From positions 1-10,087 of IMG/VR virus record IMGVR_UViG_2619619129_000007: a DNA stretch of 10,087 nucleotides. One strand, given 5' to 3'. The position numbers and the translations under genes are program-made. The notes beneath the pieces were generated by a model that worked only from the letters and a program-made list of their open reading frames with translations, did no database searches and was not told the origin of the DNA. The DNA is from a virus. Taxonomy: Duplodnaviria > Heunggongvirae > Uroviricota > Caudoviricetes. Numbering within the stretch: the first letter of the stretch is position 1; every line of letters begins with the position of its first letter. Positions 1 to 8,335 of the stretch are shown here, one piece after another.

Positions 1-674
1 ATTTCGCCCAGGGGATCACCATAATAAAATGCTGAGGCCTGGCCTTTGCGTAGTGCACGCATCACCTCAATACCTTTGATGGTGGCGTAAGCCGTCTTCA
101 TGGATTTAAATCCCAGCGTGGCGCCGATTATCCGTTTCAGTTTGCCATGATCGCATTCAATCACGTTGTTCCGGTACTTAATCTGTCGGTGTTCAACGTC
201 AGACGGGCACCGGCCTTCGCGTTTGAGCAGAGCAAGCGCGCGACCATAGGCGGGCGCTTTATCCGTGTTGATGAATCGCGGGATCTGCCACTTCTTCACG
301 TTGTTGAGGATTTTACCCAGAAACCGGTATGCAGCTTTGCTGTTACGACGGGAGGAGAGATAAAAATCGACAGTGCGGCCCCGGCTGTCGACGGCCCGGT
401 ACAGATACGCCCAGCGGCCATTGACCTTCACGTAGGTTTCATCCATGTGCCACGGGCAAAGATCGGAAGGGTTACGCCAGTACCAGCGCAGCCGTTTTTC
501 CATTTCAGGCGCATAACGCTGAACCCAGCGGTAAATCGTGGAGTGATCGACATTCACTCCGCGTTCAGCCAGCATCTCCTGCAGCTCACGGTAACTGATG
601 CCGTATTTGCAGTACCAGCGTACGGCCCACAGAATGATGTCACGCTGAAAATGCCGGCCTTTGAATGGGTTCAT
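1..674 (-). CDS. tnpA: IS26 DDE transposase (Tnp26), 3' end truncated by the window edge
   Basis: Minus-strand ATG at 674-672 translates MNPFKGRHFQRDIILWAVRWYCKYGISYRELQEMLAERGVNVDHSTIYRWVQRYAPEMEKRL... and runs out of the window at ...FYYGDPLGE, with 224 full codons visible. The + strand track ORF 147..860 is its antisense shadow. Confidence 0.9.
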   Translation of the reverse strand, partial: MNPFKGRHFQRDIILWAVRWYCKYGISYRELQEMLAERGVNVDHSTIYRWVQRYAPEMEKRLRWYWRNPSDLCPWHMDETYVKVNGRWAYLYRAVDSRGRTVDFYLSSRRNSKAAYRFLGKILNNVKKWQIPRFINTDKAPAYGRALALLKREGRCPSDVEHRQIKYRNNVIECDHGKLKRIIGATLGFKSMKTAYATIKGIEVMRALRKGQASAFYYGDPLGE

Positions 675-723
675 GTGCAGCTCCATCAGCAAAAGGGGAT
701 GATAAGTTTATCACCACCGACTA

Positions 724-737
724 TTTGCAACAGTGCC
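724..737. repeat. IS26 14-bp terminal inverted repeat (left end, IRL)
   Basis: TTTGCAACAGTGCC on the + strand is the reverse complement of the IS26 terminal repeat GGCACTGTTGCAAA; it sits 63 bp upstream of the transposase ATG, as in IS26. Confidence 0.85.
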
Positions 738-815
738 ATAGATTCTTACGTAGCGTTTCTGGCGTGCATTTTCGGGTGGTTTGTTACTGTTTTTAACGGG
801 GATACGTCAGAAACG

Positions 816-834
816 CGCTCAGGCCGTCTGAGCG
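816..834 (-). terminator. Possible weak terminator hairpin downstream of the 357-aa minus-strand gene
   Basis: CGCTCAG-GCCGT-CTGAGCG gives a 7-bp perfect stem with a 5-nt loop. On the minus strand it is followed by GCGUUUCUGACG, an interrupted U tract, so termination is uncertain. Confidence 0.3.
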
Positions 835-937
835 GTACGCGTAATGAGGCGTTATGGTAAATAGCCTATGCTAATGTCCGCTAAGAGCGAGGAGCAGACG
901 TTGAAGGCTAAAAGAAGGCTACTGAATTTGTGGCGAT

Positions 938-2011
938 TCAGTCTTCATCCGCACAATGTGGGCAGCCCGTATACCTCATTGTCTCGCCCATTGCTTCACA
1001 GGGAGTCCCACAAATTTCACAAGTATCATAGCCTGTATGGATCTCAAGACATCGTGTGCACAGGAAGTTCTCGCCAAACACACAGACCGTTTCATGGCCC
1101 TCACAGTGAGCGCAATTTGCTAGGCCATCGGGATACATCATTTCGTCCACATGACGAAAATTCTCCTCATCAAGCAAGTTATACCTTGAGAGTTCTGCGT
1201 TACAGGTGCGGCAGATGAAGGTATCGTCATCTTCTTCTTCCACCGGCAGAACCTGGTCTGTATCACACTCAGGACAGGTAAACTTTACATGGCGCTCTGA
1301 GTGAAAACAGACGCGACAAGTTTGCTCATAAACGGTAGGACCGTTCTTCCCGACGGCAAGAATTTCCATGATGGCTGCTGGCTTGTGGCAAATGGTGCAG
1401 GGATGAAATTCAGCGCCCTCAGTCGCAAGTTGTTCCAGCTCGGGCTGGATATGTTTCAGACGGGCTTCGGCATAAAACTCGTTGCCTCGCAGGAGTTGTG
1501 TTTCACCTAATGCCAGTGCCCAGTTGTGTGGTGAAGCAAAATGCTGTTGCCAGTCTTCACGCATTAGTCGGTTCAGTGCAAACCATGCCCGAGCCTGTTC
1601 AGCCAGAATGGTCTCCACCTCAGAATCACTAAAAGCTGTATGAAAGAAATGAACTACACGGTTTCGGTGATTGCGAATGGTATTAAACACAGCTTCGGTT
1701 TCTTTAGGCAGGGGCTTTTCAAGGATATCCCTCAACCGGGTACAGACATCATCAAAGGACACCGACTGAAAATCACCGGCAAGGTAGCTTTTACGCGATA
1801 CTTTTTTACCGCTGCAGACCAGCGTCCAGTGTTCGCTGGCAAGGGGTACCTTGAGCAAAATTTCTACAGCTATCCAGAAACTAACTACCGAGTGTTTGTA
1901 CTGTTTGGCCTCGAACTCTTCACGTGCCTTATCCAGAAAATCCATGCCATTCTTAATGAGAGCCGCCACATCAGCTGCGAGAGGGGCAGGTAATTTTGTT
2001 CGTGTATGCAT
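938..2011 (-). CDS. Hypothetical protein (357 aa): N-terminal alpha-helical HEPN-like domain (candidate RNase motif R-N-R-V-V-H) plus four tandem C-terminal Cys4 zinc ribbons; candidate defence/abortive-infection effector
   Basis: Long uninterrupted minus-strand ORF. Preferred start is the ATG at 2011 (MHTRTKL...), preceded by GGAG with 6-nt spacing; the track's GTG at 2029 is 6 codons upstream. Residues 116-121 are RNRVVH, fitting the Rx4-6H HEPN motif. The C-terminal 150 aa carry eight CxxC pairs (CTIC, CRVC, CPEC, CRTC, CAHC, CTRC, CEIC, CPHC). No named family recognised. Confidence 0.8.
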   Translation of the reverse strand: MHTRTKLPAPLAADVAALIKNGMDFLDKAREEFEAKQYKHSVVSFWIAVEILLKVPLASEHWTLVCSGKKVSRKSYLAGDFQSVSFDDVCTRLRDILEKPLPKETEAVFNTIRNHRNRVVHFFHTAFSDSEVETILAEQARAWFALNRLMREDWQQHFASPHNWALALGETQLLRGNEFYAEARLKHIQPELEQLATEGAEFHPCTICHKPAAIMEILAVGKNGPTVYEQTCRVCFHSERHVKFTCPECDTDQVLPVEEEDDDTFICRTCNAELSRYNLLDEENFRHVDEMMYPDGLANCAHCEGHETVCVFGENFLCTRCLEIHTGYDTCEICGTPCEAMGETMRYTGCPHCADED

Positions 2012-2481
2012 CCTGATCTCCGTTATCACGGGGGGCCGGCAGCTGCTGCAGAGATTAGTGGGTATAGAGGATAAATCTTAGTTGCTGGCTGGCCACCACA
2101 TCGAGGGCAAAGACTTTGGTGTTGACCTCATTGCACTCAAACTTCTCATGCACCATCAGCCATTGCAGGATCTTCGGATGAACAAGGCCATACAACAGGT
2201 GCATTACAAGACTGATCCTACCCAATGTGAGCAAGACCCTAGCGAGGTTATAGTTTCAATAAATTCCGAGCTGAGTCCGCCACAGCACAGTGATTTCGCC
2301 ACCGATTGTAATCTCACTCGATAAAATTAAACACAGTTATTCGCATCATTTCCCGGCTGGCAATGCGTTCACCGTGGATGCCATATTAGATAGCTCCCTT
2401 GGAAACCCTTAACGTCCGCTCCTGGCACAAAGCGGACAGTGATCACCGTTCTTACGACTACTTTCTGACTTCCTTCGTGAC

Positions 2482-2540
2482 TTGCCCTAAGCATGTTGTA
2501 GTGCGATACTTGTAATGACATTTGTAATTACAAGAGGTGT
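2482..2540 (+). promoter_or_regulatory. relBE promoter with relO operator repeats and relB ribosome-binding site
   Basis: TTGCCC (2482-2487), 17-bp spacer, GATACT (2505-2510). This overlaps the tandem operator repeats TTGTAATGACAT and TTGTAATTACAA (2509-2534), followed by AGAGGTG and the relB ATG at 2546. RelB/RelE autoregulation at such repeats is established knowledge. Confidence 0.6.
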
Positions 2541-2545
2541 AAGAC

Positions 2546-2785
2546 ATGGGTAGCATTAACCTGCGTATTGACGATGAACTTAAAGCGCGTTCTTACGCCG
2601 CGCTTGAAAAAATGGGCGTAACTCCTTCTGAAGCGCTTCGTCTCATGCTCGAGTATATCGCTGACAATGAACGCTTGCCGTTCAAACAGACACTCCTGAG
2701 TGATGAAGATGCTGAACTTGTGGAGATAGTGAAAGAACGGCTTCGTAAGCCTAAGCCAGTACGTGTGACGCTGGATGAACTCTGA
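2546..2785 (+). CDS. relB: RelB antitoxin (type II TA, ribbon-helix-helix)
   Basis: 79-aa translation MGSINLRIDDELKARSYAALEKMGVTPSEALRLMLEYIADNERLPFKQTLLSDEDAELVEIVKERLRKPKPVRVTLDEL is near-identical to E. coli K-12 RelB as I recall it. Its stop overlaps the relE start (TGATG). Confidence 0.93.
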   Translation: MGSINLRIDDELKARSYAALEKMGVTPSEALRLMLEYIADNERLPFKQTLLSDEDAELVEIVKERLRKPKPVRVTLDEL

Positions 2786-3072
2786 TGGCGTATTTTCTGG
2801 ATTTTGACGAGCGGGCACTAAAGGAATGGCGAAAGCTGGGCTCGACGGTACGTGAACAGTTGAAAAAGAAGCTGGTTGAAGTACTTGAGTCACCCCGGAT
2901 TGAAGCAAACAAGCTCCGTGGTATGCCTGATTGTTACAAGATTAAGCTCCGGTCTTCAGGCTATCGCCTTGTATACCAGGTTATAGACGAGAAAGTTGTC
3001 GTTTTCGTGATTTCTGTTGGGAAAAGAGAACGCTCGGAAGTATATAGCGAGGCGGTCAAACGCATTCTCTGA
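2785..3072 (+). CDS. relE: RelE toxin (ribosome-dependent mRNA interferase)
   Basis: 95-aa translation MAYFLDFDERALKEWRKLGSTVREQLKKKLVEVLESPRIEANKLRGMPDCYKIKLRSSGYRLVYQVIDEKVVVFVISVGKRERSEVYSEAVKRIL matches E. coli RelE in length and sequence from memory; translationally coupled to relB. Confidence 0.93.
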   Translation: MAYFLDFDERALKEWRKLGSTVREQLKKKLVEVLESPRIEANKLRGMPDCYKIKLRSSGYRLVYQVIDEKVVVFVISVGKRERSEVYSEAVKRIL

Positions 3073-3143
3073 ACCAAAGCATGACATCTCTGTTTCGCAC
3101 CGAAGGTGACACTTCTGCTTTGCGTTGACAGGAGAAGCAGGCT

Positions 3144-3299
3144 ATGAAGCAGCAAAAGGCGATGTTAATCGCCCTGATCGTCATCTGTTTAACCGTCATA
3201 GTGACGGCACTGGTAACGAGGAAAGACCTCTACGAGGTACGAATCCGAACCGGCCAGACGGAGGTCGCTGTCTTCACAGCTTACGAACCTGAGGAGTAA
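3144..3299 (+). CDS. hokD: Hok-family type I membrane toxin (HokD/RelF-like, 51 aa), third gene of the relBEF operon; carries Tyr at the usually conserved Cys position
   Basis: Not in the ORF track (under 60 aa). ATG at 3144 preceded by GGAGAAG; translation MKQQKAMLIALIVICLTVIVTALVTRKDLYEVRIRTGQTEVAVFTAYEPEE. Hok/Gef proteins normally read RKDLCEV here; this copy has TAC (Tyr). Confidence 0.85.
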   Translation: MKQQKAMLIALIVICLTVIVTALVTRKDLYEVRIRTGQTEVAVFTAYEPEE

Positions 3300-3306
3300 G
3301 AGACCA

Positions 3307-3328
3307 GGCGAGGGAGAAATCCCTCGCC
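3307..3328 (+). other. Stable GNRA-tetraloop hairpin in the hokD 3' untranslated region (possible fold-back/stability element)
   Basis: GGCGAGGGA-GAAA-TCCCTCGCC: 9-bp perfect stem closed by a GAAA loop, 8 nt after the hokD stop, with no U tract following. Confidence 0.5.
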
Positions 3329-3367
3329 ACCTCTGATGAGTCAGGCATCCTCAACGCACCCGCACTT

Positions 3368-3394
3368 AACCCGCTTCGGCGGGTTTTGTTTTTT
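3368..3394 (+). terminator. Rho-independent terminator ending the relB-relE-hokD operon
   Basis: CCCGC-TTCG-GCGGG stem-loop (3370-3383) followed by TTTTGTTTTTT. Confidence 0.65.
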
Positions 3395-3466
3395 CCTGGC
3401 ATTCTGGTTTACAATTCGCACGCCAGCCTGAACAACTGGCACCTGCTGCGCCAGCAGAGACAACCG

Positions 3467-3745
3467 ATGGCGCACGATACCAAATTACACAATTCTGATG
3501 ATTCTGCCGTCTTTGCCAGCAGGCACGGGCGGCGTTCCCGCACTTTCAAATCTGACTGGTTCCAGCATCCCCCATGCACTGAAGAACAGGCCGAGTGGCT
3601 AATTCAGTGCTACCGCAGACACGGATACGAGATTAAGAAAGCCCTCAGCCTCGATTATCGTCACTGGATAATCTCCGTCAGGCTTCCTTACTCCGAGCGC
3701 CCACCGCGTCCGTCCCGCACATACCAGCAACGGATCTGGAGGTAA
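3467..3745 (+). CDS. Hypothetical small protein, Rem-like by position (between hokD and ydfU as in K-12 Qin)
   Basis: ORF MAHDTKLHNSDDSAVFASRHGRRSRTFKSDWFQHPPCTEEQAEWLIQCYRRHGYEIKKALSLDYRHWIISVRLPYSERPPRPSRTYQQRIWR. The first in-frame ATG is at 3467; the track's 3386 start is a TTG inside the terminator U tract. The stop lies within GGAGGTAACGTG, which supplies the RBS and GTG start of the next gene. Identity to rem is positional only. Confidence 0.5.
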   Translation: MAHDTKLHNSDDSAVFASRHGRRSRTFKSDWFQHPPCTEEQAEWLIQCYRRHGYEIKKALSLDYRHWIISVRLPYSERPPRPSRTYQQRIWR

Positions 3746-3746
3746 C

Positions 3747-4796
3747 GTGCGGATATTACTTCGACCTGTTCTGGTACCGGAACTCGGGCTTGTGGTCCTT
3801 AGGCCGGGCTGTGAATCCATGCAAGTATTTCATAACCCTCGAGTGCTGGTGGAGCCTGAACCGAAAAGCATGCGTAATCTGCCGTCCGGGGTCGTTCCTG
3901 CCGTTCGCCAGCCGCTAGTGGAAGACAAAACATTGCTGCCGTTTTTCAGTAACGCACGGGTGATTCGTGCTGCTGGTGGTGCTGGTGCATTGTCTGACTG
4001 GCTGTTGCGCCATATTAAATCCTGCCAGTGGCCACACGGCGATTATCATCACAGCGAAACCGTCATTCACCGTTATGGTACCGGCGCAATGGTGTTGTGC
4101 TGGCACTGCGACAACCAGTTGCGTGACCAGACATCCGAATCACTCGAGCAACTTGCTCATCAAAACCTGTCAGCATGGATGATTGACGTCATCGGTCACG
4201 CAATAAGCGGTACGCAGGAGCGTGAATTATCTCTGGCTGAATTATCCTGGTGGGCGGTCCGCAATCAGGTGGCGGACGCGCTACCGGAAGCGGTATTACG
4301 TCGTTCGCTGGGGTTGCGTGCGGAAAAAATCCGCTCAATGTACCGTGAAAGCGACATCGTGCCGGGAGAGCAGACCGCCACCAGCATACTGAAACAGCGC
4401 ACAAAAAATCTTGCGCCGCTGCCTCACGCCCACCAGCAACAGAACCCACCACAGGAAAAGACGGTGGTCAGCATTGCCGTTGATCCTGAGTCTCCGGAAT
4501 CTTTCATGAAACGACCTAAACGTCGCCGCTGGGTTAACGAGAAATACACACGCTGGGTGAAGACACAGCCGTGTGCGTGTTGTGGTAAGCCAGCCGACGA
4601 TCCCCATCACCTGATTGGTCATGGTCAGGGCGGAATGGGGACAAAATCTCACGATATTTTCACGCTACCGCTGTGTCGGGAGCATCACAACGAGCTTCAT
4701 GCGGATCCGCTGGCGTTCGAAGAAAAGCATGGTTCTCAGGTTGATTTAATTTTTCGTTTTCTTGATCACGCCTTTGCAACTGGCGTGCTTGGGTAA
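3747..4796 (+). CDS. ydfU: DUF968-family protein (YdfU-like), with a C-terminal HNH-like Cys/His motif
   Basis: 349-aa ORF from a GTG at 3747 with GGAGG 5 nt upstream. The C-terminus carries CACCGKPADDPHHLIGHGQGG...CREHHNELH. Length and position match my recollection of K-12 Qin ydfU. Confidence 0.72.
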   Translation: MRILLRPVLVPELGLVVLRPGCESMQVFHNPRVLVEPEPKSMRNLPSGVVPAVRQPLVEDKTLLPFFSNARVIRAAGGAGALSDWLLRHIKSCQWPHGDYHHSETVIHRYGTGAMVLCWHCDNQLRDQTSESLEQLAHQNLSAWMIDVIGHAISGTQERELSLAELSWWAVRNQVADALPEAVLRRSLGLRAEKIRSMYRESDIVPGEQTATSILKQRTKNLAPLPHAHQQQNPPQEKTVVSIAVDPESPESFMKRPKRRRWVNEKYTRWVKTQPCACCGKPADDPHHLIGHGQGGMGTKSHDIFTLPLCREHHNELHADPLAFEEKHGSQVDLIFRFLDHAFATGVLG

Positions 4797-4808
4797 AAGA
4801 GGTGACTG

Positions 4809-5165
4809 ATGCTCATAGATTTGGTTTTACCTTACCCACCGACGGTGAACACTTACTGGCGACGCCGTGGCAGCACATATTTTATCTCGGAGGAGGGAAA
4901 GCGTTATCGCCGGGCTGTGGCGCTTATTGTTCGCCAGCAGCGGCTGAAATTAAGCCTGTCCGGAAGGCTGGCGATAAAGGTGATTGCAGAGCCACCGGAT
5001 AAGCGTCGTCGCGACCTGGACAATATCCTGAAAGCACCGCTGGATGCGCTGACGCATGCGGGAGTGTTAATGGACGATGAGCAGTTTGATGAAATCAATA
5101 TCGTTCGTGGTCAGCCAGTATCTGGTGGACGTCTGGGGGTGAAGATTTACCCCATAATGCATTAA
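4809..5165 (+). CDS. rusA: RusA-family Holliday junction resolvase
   Basis: 118-aa translation contains PPDKRRRDLDNILKAPLDALTHAGVLMDDEQ, matching the RusA acidic catalytic region and size; RBS AGAGGTG upstream; sits just upstream of Q as in lambdoid phages. Confidence 0.85.
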   Translation: MLIDLVLPYPPTVNTYWRRRGSTYFISEEGKRYRRAVALIVRQQRLKLSLSGRLAIKVIAEPPDKRRRDLDNILKAPLDALTHAGVLMDDEQFDEINIVRGQPVSGGRLGVKIYPIMH

Positions 5166-5179
5166 GAGCAGGTCAAAAA

Positions 5180-6001
5180 ATGAAACTGGAAGATTTACCG
5201 AAATACTACTCCCCAAAATCCCCTGGCCTGACCGATGCATCGGCCTCAACGTCAAAAGATGCGCTGAGTATCACTGATGTGATGGCCGCGCAGGGCATGA
5301 CACAGAATCGGGCTGAGATGGGTTTTTCTGCGTTCCTGGGGAAAATGGGCATCAGTATGAATGACAGGGCGCGGGCAACAGAATTACTGGCAGATTATGC
5401 ACTCAGTCGGTGCGATCGTGTGGCGGCGTTGAGAAAACTTCCGGCAGAAATAAAACCGGTAGTGATGCGCATTATGGCTTCGTACGCTTTTGAGGATTAT
5501 GCCCGTAGCGCAGCGAGTAAAAAGCAGTGCCCTTGTTGCTATGGGGAAAAATTTATTGAAAGCGTAGTTTTTACAAACAAGGTCCAGTATCCGGATGGTA
5601 AGCCGCCGGTATGGGCAAAGTGTACGAAAGGTGTGTATTCGTCTTACTGGGAAGAATGGAAAAAAGTCAGGGAGGTGGTAAAAGTTGCCTGTCCGGAGTG
5701 TGGCGGAAAGGGTGAGGTTTCCACCGCCTGTAAGGATTGCCGTGGGCGTGGTGTCGCCATTCATCGTGAAGAGTCGGTAAAACGTGGTATGCCTGTTATC
5801 AGAGACTGCCAGCGTTGTGGTGGTCGTGGCTATGAAAGACTACCATCAACGGAGGCATTTAATGCTATATGCGAGGTGACAAACCAGATAACACGCGCGT
5901 CATGGGAAAAAACAGTTAAGAAATTCTATGATGCGCTGGTGACCCGGTTTGATGTTGAAGAAGCATGGGCTGAGCGGCAGTTAAAAAAGGTAACTAGGTA
6001 A
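5180..6001 (+). CDS. Late-gene antitermination protein Q-like (273 aa) with DnaJ-like CxxCxGxG zinc-finger repeats
   Basis: Located between rusA and a pR'/tR'-like promoter-terminator pair. Contains CPCCYGEKF, CPECGGKGEV, CKDCRGRGV and CQRCGGRGYE. Assignment rests on position and these motifs, not on an alignment. Confidence 0.7.
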   Translation: MKLEDLPKYYSPKSPGLTDASASTSKDALSITDVMAAQGMTQNRAEMGFSAFLGKMGISMNDRARATELLADYALSRCDRVAALRKLPAEIKPVVMRIMASYAFEDYARSAASKKQCPCCYGEKFIESVVFTNKVQYPDGKPPVWAKCTKGVYSSYWEEWKKVREVVKVACPECGGKGEVSTACKDCRGRGVAIHREESVKRGMPVIRDCQRCGGRGYERLPSTEAFNAICEVTNQITRASWEKTVKKFYDALVTRFDVEEAWAERQLKKVTR

Positions 6002-6006
6002 CAAGG

Positions 6007-6034
6007 TTGATTTTTCCGGAATCTGTGGTAAATT
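6007..6034 (+). promoter_or_regulatory. Candidate late promoter pR' (extended -10) immediately downstream of Q
   Basis: TTGATT (6007-6012), 16-bp spacer, TGgTAAATT (6026-6034), placed as pR' is in lambdoid phages. Confidence 0.5.
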
Positions 6035-6082
6035 CGTCATAATAATGGGCTTTTTATGCCTGACGTTAGAAGAGTTTCTACA

Positions 6083-6107
6083 ACCCGCCGCCGAGCGGGT
6101 TTTTTAT
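6083..6107 (+). terminator. tR'-like intrinsic terminator (expected Q antitermination target)
   Basis: CCCGC-CGCCGA-GCGGG hairpin followed by TTTTTTATT, about 60 nt downstream of the candidate pR'. Confidence 0.6.
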
Positions 6108-6144
6108 TGCGGAATTAATTACGGACCGTTATTATTCTGCTCCC

Positions 6145-6220
6145 GGCCCTTTAGCTCAGTGGTGAGAGCGAGCGACTCATAATCGCCAGGTCGCTGGTTC
6201 AAATCCAGCAAGGGCCACCA
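6145..6220 (+). tRNA. ileZ: tRNA with CAU anticodon, ileX/ileZ-like (tRNA-Ile2, lysidine-type; tRNA-Met not excluded), CCA encoded
   Basis: Manual cloverleaf: acceptor GGCCCTT/AAGGGCC, D-arm GCTC...GAGC, anticodon loop CTCATAA (CAT at 6178-6180), T-arm GCTGG-TTCAAAT-CCAGC, discriminator A plus CCA. Resembles E. coli ileX from memory. Confidence 0.85.
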
Positions 6221-6320
6221 TCACAAACCGCCATTAGCTTATCAGGAAGAGCAGACGACACGATAACAGGGTTGTTGGTGCGGGGGCGGGTCCCCGATGG
6301 CGGTCCATTATCGGTATTCA

Positions 6321-6394
6321 GCGTTGTTAGCTCAGCCGGACAGAGCAATTGCCTTCTAAGCAATCGGTCACTGGTTCGAATCCAGTACAGCGCG
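6321..6394 (+). tRNA. argO: tRNA-Arg (anticodon UCU), argO-like, CCA not encoded
   Basis: Manual cloverleaf: acceptor GCGTTGT/ACAGCGC (one G-U pair), anticodon stem ATTGC/GCAAT, loop CTTCTAA (TCT at 6355-6357), T-arm ACTGG-TTCGAAT-CCAGT, discriminator G. Confidence 0.85.
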
Positions 6395-6534
6395 CTATAT
6401 TCATTCTTCCAGATTCCTTCCGGCAGAGCCTTATACTGAAATATACCTGGCTCAGGATATTGTTGAAAATATTTTATGTTTGTCAAAAATAAAAGTTCTG
6501 TTAAGTATTGATTGAGTGTTTGTTATACGGTCTA

Positions 6535-6861
6535 ATGGTTTTTTCAGCATTAAATATTTATCATTCATATGGTGTGGGTAGAGTGAATATTGATGAGGCG
6601 TCGGGGTGTTTCATCCTTAGGCAGCGTATTGATATAGTCAATGCAGGACGAGCAAAGGCCTTCAGCCGTTTGACAGTTTTGTTCTGTACTCCTGATCGTC
6701 TTTCGGGAAGAGACGTTATTATTCTGAATAGTGATGCTATACAGAGGGTTTGCGATGAGTTCATGGTTGCTAATTCAGAATTATTTGCTCTTGTTCAGGA
6801 GTACAACAGAATAGCCAGGACCTGTGGTATGGATGAACTTCGGATTACTCATCTGGGGTAG
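6535..6861 (+). CDS. Hypothetical cargo protein (about 108 aa), unrecognised
   Basis: ORF in moderately AT-rich DNA after tRNA-Arg. First in-frame ATG at 6535 (track start 6508 is a TTG); in-frame GTGs at 6574 and 6583 are alternatives. Candidate promoter TTGTCA-N16-TAAGTA at about 6478-6505. No family recognised; coding status unproven. Confidence 0.4.
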   Translation: MVFSALNIYHSYGVGRVNIDEASGCFILRQRIDIVNAGRAKAFSRLTVLFCTPDRLSGRDVIILNSDAIQRVCDEFMVANSELFALVQEYNRIARTCGMDELRITHLG

Positions 6862-7253
6862 ATACATATCTGGATTATCACTTGTTACGGTAAAAAGTGA
6901 TTGCTTACTGTTTTTGTGAGTGGCATTGCAGCAGCCGGATAATGTCAGTGCTGGCTGACGGTGTGCTGGTGGCGGGTGTGGTGGTTGTTGCTTTCCCGTT
7001 GCTGAAAAAGAAAACGCCAGACTGTTAGCCGGGTATCAGTTAGCGGGAGAAATTTTTAAATACTTCACAATTCAGGCGGTTGACTGTTGTCTGGTTTGCG
7101 GGGAGTTTGTTAAAAGAAACTGGCATGGTGAATCCCCCTGTGCGGAGGGGCAATCAGCGAGTAGGTATATGGGATAATCGCGGATTCAGGTGCTGGTACT
7201 GAATTCACCGGGAGGCACCCGGCACCATGCAATGGCACATAGCGCCACTCTCC

Positions 7254-7290
7254 AGCCCCTCTCCGGAGGGGCTGTTTATATTGATTTTGT
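7254..7290 (+). terminator. Strong intrinsic terminator closing the plus-strand cargo unit
   Basis: AGCCCCTC-TCCG-GAGGGGCT: 8-bp perfect stem, followed on the + strand by GTTTATATTGATTTTGT. No U tract on the minus side. Confidence 0.6.
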
Positions 7291-7308
7291 CAGATGTGAG
7301 TAAACTCC

Positions 7309-7644
7309 TTATGGACTTTGTTGTTTTAGTCCATAAGGACATATTTGCAGAGTGCAACGGTTATTAAAGCATTCATTCAATACGTTATCTGTATTTGTAG
7401 GACATTCCTGGCTGTTTTTGATTAAATTCCAGAATGTTTTATTGAATGGTACTACGTTGTAAATGGTTACAGGTAGCACTTTGTTATTGAGCATGATACC
7501 TGTGTGAGTCAGTGTAAATATACTTTCAGGAGGTAAGAAAGCATCCGATTGATACCAGATTATTAATTTTATTTTACTCCATATGACTGAAAAAGATATT
7601 CCGCATGATGGCTGGATAACTGTATCAATCACAATCCACTTCAT
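7309..7644 (-). CDS. Hypothetical Cys-containing protein (111 aa) in strongly AT-rich DNA, transcribed against the late operon
   Basis: Minus-strand ORF with a good RBS (AAGGAAGCTAA then ATG at 7644). Translation [43 protein letters not shown]...[31 protein letters not shown]. No family recognised. Confidence 0.5.
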
Positions 7645-7904
7645 TTAGCTTCCTTGTTTATGCCTTGCTGGTGATGTTCTGAAAAGTATAAATGATATTT
7701 TTGAATATAAACCATAGAGCAGAATTATTTTTCTGATGTTGTTTATTGTTTATTTAAATGCAGGGTGGTTTATATCTCGTCTTGTAGTTTATCCATGCAT
7801 ATCTGCTTGATGATCAGGTTTCTATTTAAGGTATGGTTTTGTGTTTTTTCTGTGTTACATGTCTGGTATTTTAAAGAATTATTTTTCAGATGGTGGAAAG
7901 AACC

Positions 7905-8093
7905 ATGGCATTTAAACACTATGATGTTGTCAGGGCGGCGCCGCCGTCAGATCTTGCGGAAAAGCTGACACATAAACTGAAAGAGGGCTGGCAGCCGTTT
8001 GGTAGTCCGGTGGCCATAACCCCTTATACCCTGATGCAGGCGATTGCAGCAGAAGGTGATGTGGTGGTCAGTGGTGCAACTGAGCCCGAGTGA
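7905..8093 (+). CDS. Small DUF1737-like phage protein commonly found just upstream of holin genes
   Basis: Translation MAFKHYDVVRAAPPSDLAEKLTHKLKEGWQPFGSPVAITPYTLMQAIAAEGDVVVSGATEPE. Start chosen at the ATG at 7905 (GGAAAG upstream) rather than the track's 7890. Family name recalled from memory. Confidence 0.65.
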   Translation: MAFKHYDVVRAAPPSDLAEKLTHKLKEGWQPFGSPVAITPYTLMQAIAAEGDVVVSGATEPE

Positions 8094-8335
8094 TACTACG
8101 TCATCGTACTGGCCCGGCATTCCAGGCCATAAAAGACAGTCTGGCAGTGGGACTAAATGTACTGACGCTGACGGATATTACCAAAAATGCAACGTATGGC
8201 GTTGAGATAGAAAGTCTGGTGCTGGAGATAAATGCACCGGCATCATCATAAAAAGTGAGCCAGTCAAATGGAAGGTATCGTTAAACTCACCGGTAGTGTC
8301 AGTGGATCGTCTGAGACGCTTGCATGAGTTATCAG

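Follow-up and report, generated by a model that had tools for sequence, protein, structure and literature searches.

A rare natural Cys30Tyr allele of the toxin HokD, probably attenuating, in a Qin-like lambdoid prophage

The window analysed here, that is, the whole stretch of 10,087 nucleotides of the IMG/VR record IMGVR_UViG_2619619129_000007, is the part of a Qin-like lambdoid prophage given over to late regulation and lysis, and it contains a relB-relE-hokD operon in which hokD comes third (Table 1). The gene and its operon had been named as such in a first-pass annotation made from the DNA letters, and both assignments were supported by the Pfam matches and by the annotation of the matching genomes. 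The relB and relE genes overlap in an ATGA at 2785, in agreement with a relBE type II toxin-antitoxin operon. The arrangement follows that of the Qin prophage of Escherichia coli K-12, where HokD is also called RelF and the operon relBEF: the gene order relB-relE-hokD, the Shine-Dalgarno sequence, the 3' stem-loop, the terminator, the downstream DUF968, RusA/Q and lysis genes and the Tyr47 TAC-GAA editing site are all shared, and the two HokD proteins have 50 of their 51 residues in common. The window differs from K-12 in having Tyr30 (TAC) for Cys (TGC), the substitution N68K in RelB, and a 363-aa Cys-rich ORF upstream of relB, where K-12 has ydfV/flxA; this ORF had no Pfam match. Codon 68 of relB (2747-2749) reads AAG for AAT, a change seen neither in K-12 and strain 97-3250 nor in four other carriers of the hokD allele described below. 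The same T>G change at 2749 completes a perfect 13-nt palindrome, GGCTTCGTAAGCC (2739-2751), which was called on the minus strand in the terminator scan.

Table 1 Features of the hokD region and of related Hok loci (positions refer to the window unless another locus is named)
Feature	Position	Strand	Basis or remark
363-aa ORF with CxxC pairs, zinc-ribbon-like	938-2029	-	443 bits to phrog_37794 (function unknown)
relB antitoxin gene, 79 aa; differs from K-12 by N68K (2749 T>G) and synonymously at 2617	2546-2785	+	Pfam RelB PF04221, 111.5 bits; alignment
relE gene (mRNA-interferase toxin), 95 aa, no difference from K-12	2785-3072	+	Pfam ParE_toxin PF05016, 51 bits; relE annotation in matching genomes
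Shine-Dalgarno-like AGGAG, 8 nt upstream of hokD ATG	3131-3135	+	Sequence reading
hokD (relF) toxin ORF, 51 aa plus stop, ATG start, intact, C30Y allele	3144-3299	+	Translation; hokD annotation in all matching E. coli genomes
Predicted local RNA hairpin ACCUC-UAC-GAGGU, -5.2 kcal/mol, only U-A-C unpaired; in both alleles	3226-3238	+	ViennaRNA
New TadA-like 7-mer CUACGAG with UACG core (TACG, 3231-3234), 6/7 of YUACGAA, G not A at +4	3230-3236	+	Sequence; consensus from PMC12255301
Codon 30, TAC (Tyr); variant base A3232	3231-3233	+	Alignment; G at 3232 in K-12, 97-3250 and A37
Third TACG context, GUACGAA (Val32 GTA, then CGA), also in K-12; editing of A3239 synonymous	3237-3243	+	Sequence, fold
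Known HokD editing site, Tyr47 TAC (3282-3284) in full consensus UUACGAA, open loop	3281-3287	+	Sequence, fold
GC-rich 3' stem-loop GGCGAGGGA-GAAA-UCCCUCGCC, 3' of the stop codon	3307-3328	+	Fold; part of hok mRNA 3' region, conserved in all aligned hok loci
Intrinsic-terminator-like hairpin AACCCGCTTCGGCGGGTT (3368-3385), then T-run	3368-3395	+	Terminator scan
DUF968 gene, RusA, Q antiterminator, holin, endolysin and Rz genes	Downstream of hokD		Prophage gene content
tRNA-Met(CAT)	6145-6220		Downstream of the Q antiterminator gene
tRNA-Arg(TCT)	6321-6395		Downstream of the Q antiterminator gene
sRNA STnc100 (132 bits)	7094-7283		Downstream of the Q antiterminator gene
Tyr/Tyr Hok gene, locus L021 (Ca. 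Pantoea gossypiicola)	3516-3568	-	
Tyr/Tyr Hok gene, locus L022 (Dryocola sp. BD626)	1990-2042	-	
Tyr/Tyr Hok gene, locus L010	1501-1656		

Similarity to complete mok/hok loci (L004 and L007, with 70-aa in-frame Mok forms) starts at 3130, which is 14 nt before the ATG, and relE lies upstream of that point (BLAST, alignment). No Rfam family was found in positions 2300-3500 of the window. The upstream mok and the antisense Sok gene that make up a canonical hok/mok/sok locus are missing, and hokD of K-12 is truncated in the same way. HokB, in contrast, has the regulators mokB/sokB, for which the window hokD has no counterpart.

The hokD ORF is intact, translates as MKQQKAMLIALIVICLTVIVTALVTRKDLYEVRIRTGQTEVAVFTAYEPEE and contains RKDLYEV with TAC, as had been read at first. 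Its match to Pfam HOK_GEF (PF01848) covers profile positions 1-42 of 42 and scores 82.2 bits, where the cut-off is 22 bits. The translation consists of a basic N-terminus (MKQQK), a hydrophobic helix (AMLIALIVICLTVIVTALV) with the conserved Cys-x-Thr (C15, T17) and a polar tail beginning TRKDL; C16 and T18 belong to the 7 conserved positions of the family (preprint 10.1101/2025.08.07.668861). Profile score and architecture place the predicted protein in the Hok/Gef type I membrane toxin family. The NCBIfam models were uninformative, as both the Tyr and the Cys allele fell under the cut-offs of two Hok models.

When the window was aligned with K-12 MG1655 and with strain 97-3250, whose genome is the closest complete one, a sole difference appeared within hokD, A for G at 3232. 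Codon 30 is TGC (Cys) in both genomes, which means that the single G-to-A change invoked in the first-pass annotation does account for the Tyr codon, and that the Cys it had given for the reference protein is right; a reference HokD carrying Tyr at this place was looked for and was not found in either genome. The peptide encoded by the DNA therefore has Tyr at both position 30 and position 47; Cys15 in the transmembrane segment is the only Cys left, and no periplasmic Cys is present. In the E. coli Hok paralogs and in most hokB orthologs, one or both residues of the periplasmic pair (at about 30 and about 47) are hard-coded as Cys, the other being Cys or an editable Tyr (PMC5630033). This is a typical but non-absolute feature, with exceptions in Pantoea and Dryocola, and the window HokD, with Tyr at both places, lacks it. 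HokD is a well-known toxin, and this uncharacterised allele of it is already in databases, where the NCBI/RefSeq names of the Tyr30 protein include 'MULTISPECIES: type I toxin-antitoxin system toxin HokD [Escherichia]'.

The Tyr30 allele is rare. When 5,426 complete RefSeq E. coli genomes were searched with an 86-bp probe centred on the variant, about 9,600 hokD-like copies were found in 4,659 genomes, with no full-length exact match to the Tyr allele; the best full-length matches were at 98.8% identity, which corresponds to one mismatch. The exact 26-mer of the Tyr allele had no match in IMG/VR, compared with at least 120 for the Cys 26-mer. In a collection of 15 billion proteins, the exact 51-aa Tyr30 protein was found on about 76 contigs (from NCBI, ENA and Logan assemblies) and Cys30 HokD on at least 1000. 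The absence from the complete E. coli genomes would suit a sequencing or assembly error in the Tyr codon. This explanation has next to no likelihood, however, and is refuted by the identical protein on these roughly 76 contigs, by six independent assemblies from which the allele was read back, and by its occurrence on two flanking haplotypes.

The hok coding sequence is otherwise identical on the two haplotypes. One of them, a relBE-hokD haplotype with 2617C and 3232A, is common to four relBE-bearing Tyr30 carriers, and the window has three further differences from it, RelB N68K among them. A 4.97-Mb contig of GCA_900448095.1, itself a Tyr30 carrier, matches positions 2410-8299 of the window at 99.95%. 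The other haplotype is represented by L004 (4850-5260) and L007 (2350-2760), where the allele stands in another prophage context without relBE and hok is still extended upstream by an in-frame Mok-type sequence. Strain A37 has the Cys allele nearest to these two loci, which differs from them only at 3232 over the 252 bp that they share with the window. Because of the two haplotypes and of the single difference from A37, the comparison suggests that the allele either arose by recurrent mutation, with at least two origins, or moved in a short conversion tract. Its persistence on two haplotypes is compatible with neutrality as much as with a tolerated attenuation.

Other minor HokD alleles at the pair and in the motif were present in the protein collection, including C30F, C30S, Y47F, E48K and E48A (P0003, P0017, P0121, P0126 and P0140). 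E48K, which changes TACG to TACA, was on about 80 contigs, and C30W was also seen, rarely, among the retrieved HokC/D/E-type proteins. The possibility that minor alleles cluster at positions 30, 47 and 48 (C30Y/F/S, Y47F, E48K/A) was considered and was not reproduced in an independent sample of IMG/VR copies, all 118 of which have TAC-GAA at codons 47-48; the apparent clustering is probably an effect of sampling or clonality.

Position 30 is a known Cys/Tyr dimorphic site linked to RNA editing, and together with its partner at 46/47 it is the relevant frame for reading C30Y. Residues 30 and 47 of HokD, the periplasmic pair, correspond to 29 and 46 of HokB; HokB has an edited Tyr29 with Cys46, and HokC, HokD and HokE have Cys29-30 with an edited Tyr46-47 (PMC5630033). 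Bar-Yaacov et al. (2017, PMC5630033) showed that the tRNA-Arg2 adenosine deaminase TadA converts the TAC of hokB, within TACG, to a Cys codon, and the hokB orthologs show the pair states Tyr/Cys, Cys/Tyr or Cys/Cys (PMC5630033). Editing at position 46/47 of hokD reaches about 6% in K-12 (PMC5630033, PMC12214031). The first-pass annotation had described the Cys as conserved in Hok/Gef toxins, which is right for the reference HokD and for 92% of 1,264 unique Hok peptides, but not as an invariant rule: Tyr is found in 4.8% of these peptides (preprint 10.1101/2025.08.07.668861), and K-12 HokB (...TRQTLYELRF...) has TLYEL with TAC at the homologous codon. The partner position is C in 34% and Y in 62% of the peptides, and GAA is conserved after the Tyr (preprint 10.1101/2025.08.07.668861). 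A Tyr30/Tyr47 state does not seem to be mentioned in the Hok-editing papers or in the Hok-diversity preprint.

Among 209 HokC/D/E-type proteins retrieved, Cys15/Cys30/Tyr47 was present in 146, and Tyr30/Tyr47 was confined to the HokD-Tyr cluster and one distant lineage. The latter is HokB-like, and Tyr/Tyr was found in 4 of its 28 clusters, including a Pantoea RefSeq protein. A pattern scan over one genome per bacterial species gave 13 Hok genes with Tyr30, 11 of them Tyr/Cys and 2 Tyr/Tyr (Ca. Pantoea gossypiicola and Dryocola sp.); the TAC lies within the full YTACGAA 7-mer in 13 of 13, and the two Tyr/Tyr genes have UUACGAA at both sites. These two proteins of the HokB-like lineage resemble the window HokD in having Tyr at the two periplasmic positions, each time from a TAC codon with G after it. 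They differ from it in the full consensus at both sites and in being apparently fixed at the species level, whereas the allele of the window is rare within its species and departs from the consensus at +4, and they are no more than about 45-50% identical to HokD in sequence. Judged by their sequences, the Tyr/Tyr toxins of L021, L022 and L010, all with TAC inside UUACGAA for both Tyr residues and with Tyr/Tyr apparently as the state of the species, are candidates for double mRNA editing. It was also considered whether the edited Hok of Pantoea stewartii (Tyr30Cys, WP_082999268.1) is a Tyr/Tyr protein, but this was not established, as the ATCC 8199 copy is Tyr/Cys and the accession is not in P0216. 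At the Tyr47 site, codons 47-48 are TAC-GAA in all 118 Cys30 copies of the IMG/VR sample (L024 onward), and the -2 base of the motif is always a pyrimidine while codon 46 is variable (GCT, GCC, GTC, GTT, GAC). The full YUACGAA at Tyr47 looks conserved at the nucleotide level.

The new Tyr codon may itself be a target of TadA. The TadA motif has been described as YUACGAA in a stem-loop, with 68.8% of the known bacterial editing events having the exact motif and 26.2% one mismatch (PMC12255301). At codon 30 the UACG core with the target A in second place is present, and the seven-base YUACGAA (-2 to +4) is not. As in HokB of E. coli (hokB/sokB), where Tyr29 to Cys is the model case of A-to-I mRNA recoding by TadA, the Tyr codon is TAC with a G after it, the protein reads LYE, and the UACG core has C at -2. 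A HokB-like switch was weighed, in which TadA would edit A3232 in a useful fraction of the transcripts and restore Cys30, so that toxicity would depend on editing at codon 30, edits at both 30 and 47 being needed for Cys/Cys. It draws on the newly created core, on an unpaired target A, and on a match of six out of seven bases to the tRNA-Arg2 loop sequence. In Lysobacter, A-to-G events have been recorded in CTACGAG contexts (PMC12255301), the Tyr30 site of the Pantoea stewartii Hok is recorded as Tyr30Cys, and Tyr/Tyr Hok proteins with both consensus motifs exist in Ca. Pantoea gossypiicola and Dryocola.

We nevertheless regard such a switch as improbable. Any G>A change at TGC-GAG gives TACG, so that the core at codon 30 follows automatically from the next codon being GAG, and the motif does not speak for selection. 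Here G stands at +4, compared with A in 13 of 13 fixed Tyr30 sites. In hokB, single mutations at each of the other motif positions abolish editing or nearly so (PMC12255301), and within the accessible part of the supplementary table of that study, YTACGAG contexts number 6 compared with 213 for YTACGAA, without correction for tRNA entries or background. The predicted structure also seems unfavourable. In ViennaRNA folds at 17, 37, 51, 101 and 323 nt, which included the window sizes used by the authors of that study, A3232 is unpaired in a 3-nt loop, but the -2, +2, +3 and +4 bases are paired (P(unpaired) 0.00-0.06), which puts four of the seven motif bases inside a stable predicted hairpin stem. 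The CUACGAA of hokB, identical to the tRNA-Arg2 loop, lies in an open loop of about 10 nt; the folds gave open 9-10-nt loops for hokB Tyr29 and hokD Tyr47, and the loop of the tRNA-Arg2 arm measures 7 nt. Even the consensus site at hokD Tyr47 is edited at about 6% only. With G at +4, a 3-nt loop with a largely paired motif and this low level at the consensus site, rescue of Cys30 by editing is unlikely, and the motif and the modelled fold make substantial editing at A3232 decidedly unlikely.

The partner residue would add a second requirement, as HokB has a hard-coded Cys46 and the window allele has Tyr47 instead. On a stronger form of the editing idea, the HokD allele is doubly editable and the fully toxic Cys30-Cys47 form would come only from twice-edited transcripts, which would constitute a two-input TadA gate; we give this little credence. 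If it were true, double editing would recur among Hok toxins as a state that has not been described so far, shared with the Tyr/Tyr proteins of Ca. Pantoea gossypiicola and Dryocola sp. An effect of the G>A change on translation initiation at the RNA level was considered as well and found unsupported, since the accessibility of the Shine-Dalgarno sequence and the AUG is equal for G and A. The 323-nt folds with G and A at 3232 differ by a shift of 1.5 kcal/mol and by local re-pairing (ViennaRNA).

The explanation that we favour, and hold to be somewhat probable by analogy with HokB, is that C30Y is a rare natural missense allele of HokD that attenuates the toxin. In HokB, the non-editable Tyr29 (TAT) form is mildly toxic compared with the strongly toxic Cys29 form (Didi et al. 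2025, PMC12214031). The toxicity of Cys29 HokB requires Cys14, Cys46 and DsbA, and an intramolecular Cys29-Cys46 disulfide is supported by data (PMC12214031). If HokD works in the same manner, Cys at both pair positions would allow a disulfide made by DsbA within the molecule and, with it, strong toxicity. Normal HokD has Cys30 hard-coded, and TadA turns the Tyr47 TAC in UUACGAA into Cys in a few percent of the transcripts. The Tyr30/Tyr47 peptide, without a periplasmic thiol, could form neither the 30-47 disulfide, unless it were edited twice, nor intermolecular bonds through Cys30. It would then be expected to behave like unedited HokB, being inserted into the membrane and harmful if over-produced but clearly less toxic, and the UACG core in its poor context would restore Cys30 weakly or not at all. 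The attenuation, which the first-pass annotation had raised as a possibility, is expected because the sole periplasmic thiol is lost, by analogy with HokB, and it would agree in direction with the published Tyr29/Cys29 results (PMC12214031). We infer both the reduced toxicity and the low editing of the allele, the former by extrapolation from HokB, a protein about 40% identical to HokD. A weaker allele of a toxin without its antitoxin would plausibly be tolerated or mildly favoured.

Some facts point the other way. Hok of R1 with C31A remains toxic on overexpression (preprint 10.1101/2025.08.07.668861), and Cys at position 30/31 is therefore not strictly required for killing. HokD itself is reported to be toxic on overexpression (preprint 10.1101/2025.08.07.668861) although only about 6% of its transcripts encode Cys47, so the 30-47 disulfide may not be its main determinant. 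In work by Wilmaerts et al. from 2021, substitutions of the periplasmic Cys/Tyr residues reportedly abolished killing for Hok, HokA and HokE, with HokD not listed. A near-neutral polymorphism was also weighed, in which the transmembrane helix and the C-terminal domain of HokD would suffice for killing with any residue at position 30. On this view hokD is what is left of a hok locus, orphaned and weakly expressed, and C30Y would be a product of drift that changes neither toxicity nor fitness measurably. We consider this to be a serious possibility, though an unlikely one. The missing mok and sok agree with it, and hokD is called an inactivated hok locus in the literature (PMC5630033, PMC12214031); the Tyr30 allele is rare, and many other rare HokD missense alleles exist, C30F and C30S among them. 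The neutral polymorphism is opposed by the constraint on position 30, where the residues other than Cys are nearly all Tyr in an editable TAC-G, and by the strong change of HokB toxicity with the Tyr/Cys state at the homologous site (PMC12214031). The uniform TAC-GAA at Tyr47 in the prophage copies likewise argues for selection on the Cys30/Tyr47 pair in hokD-like genes.

C30Y hokD is a modest curiosity and no new kind of system. If the change is neutral, it is an ordinary rare polymorphism. The relF/hokD gene is in use as a kill-switch gene, and an attenuated natural allele of it would be worth knowing for that use. As a Tyr30/Tyr47 protein, this HokD is a natural experiment on the role of the Cys/Tyr pair in Hok toxins and on what TadA requires of an mRNA: it bears on whether a periplasmic Cys is needed for killing, on whether a near-consensus UACG in a tight hairpin can be edited, and on whether a Hok toxin may be gated by two edits.
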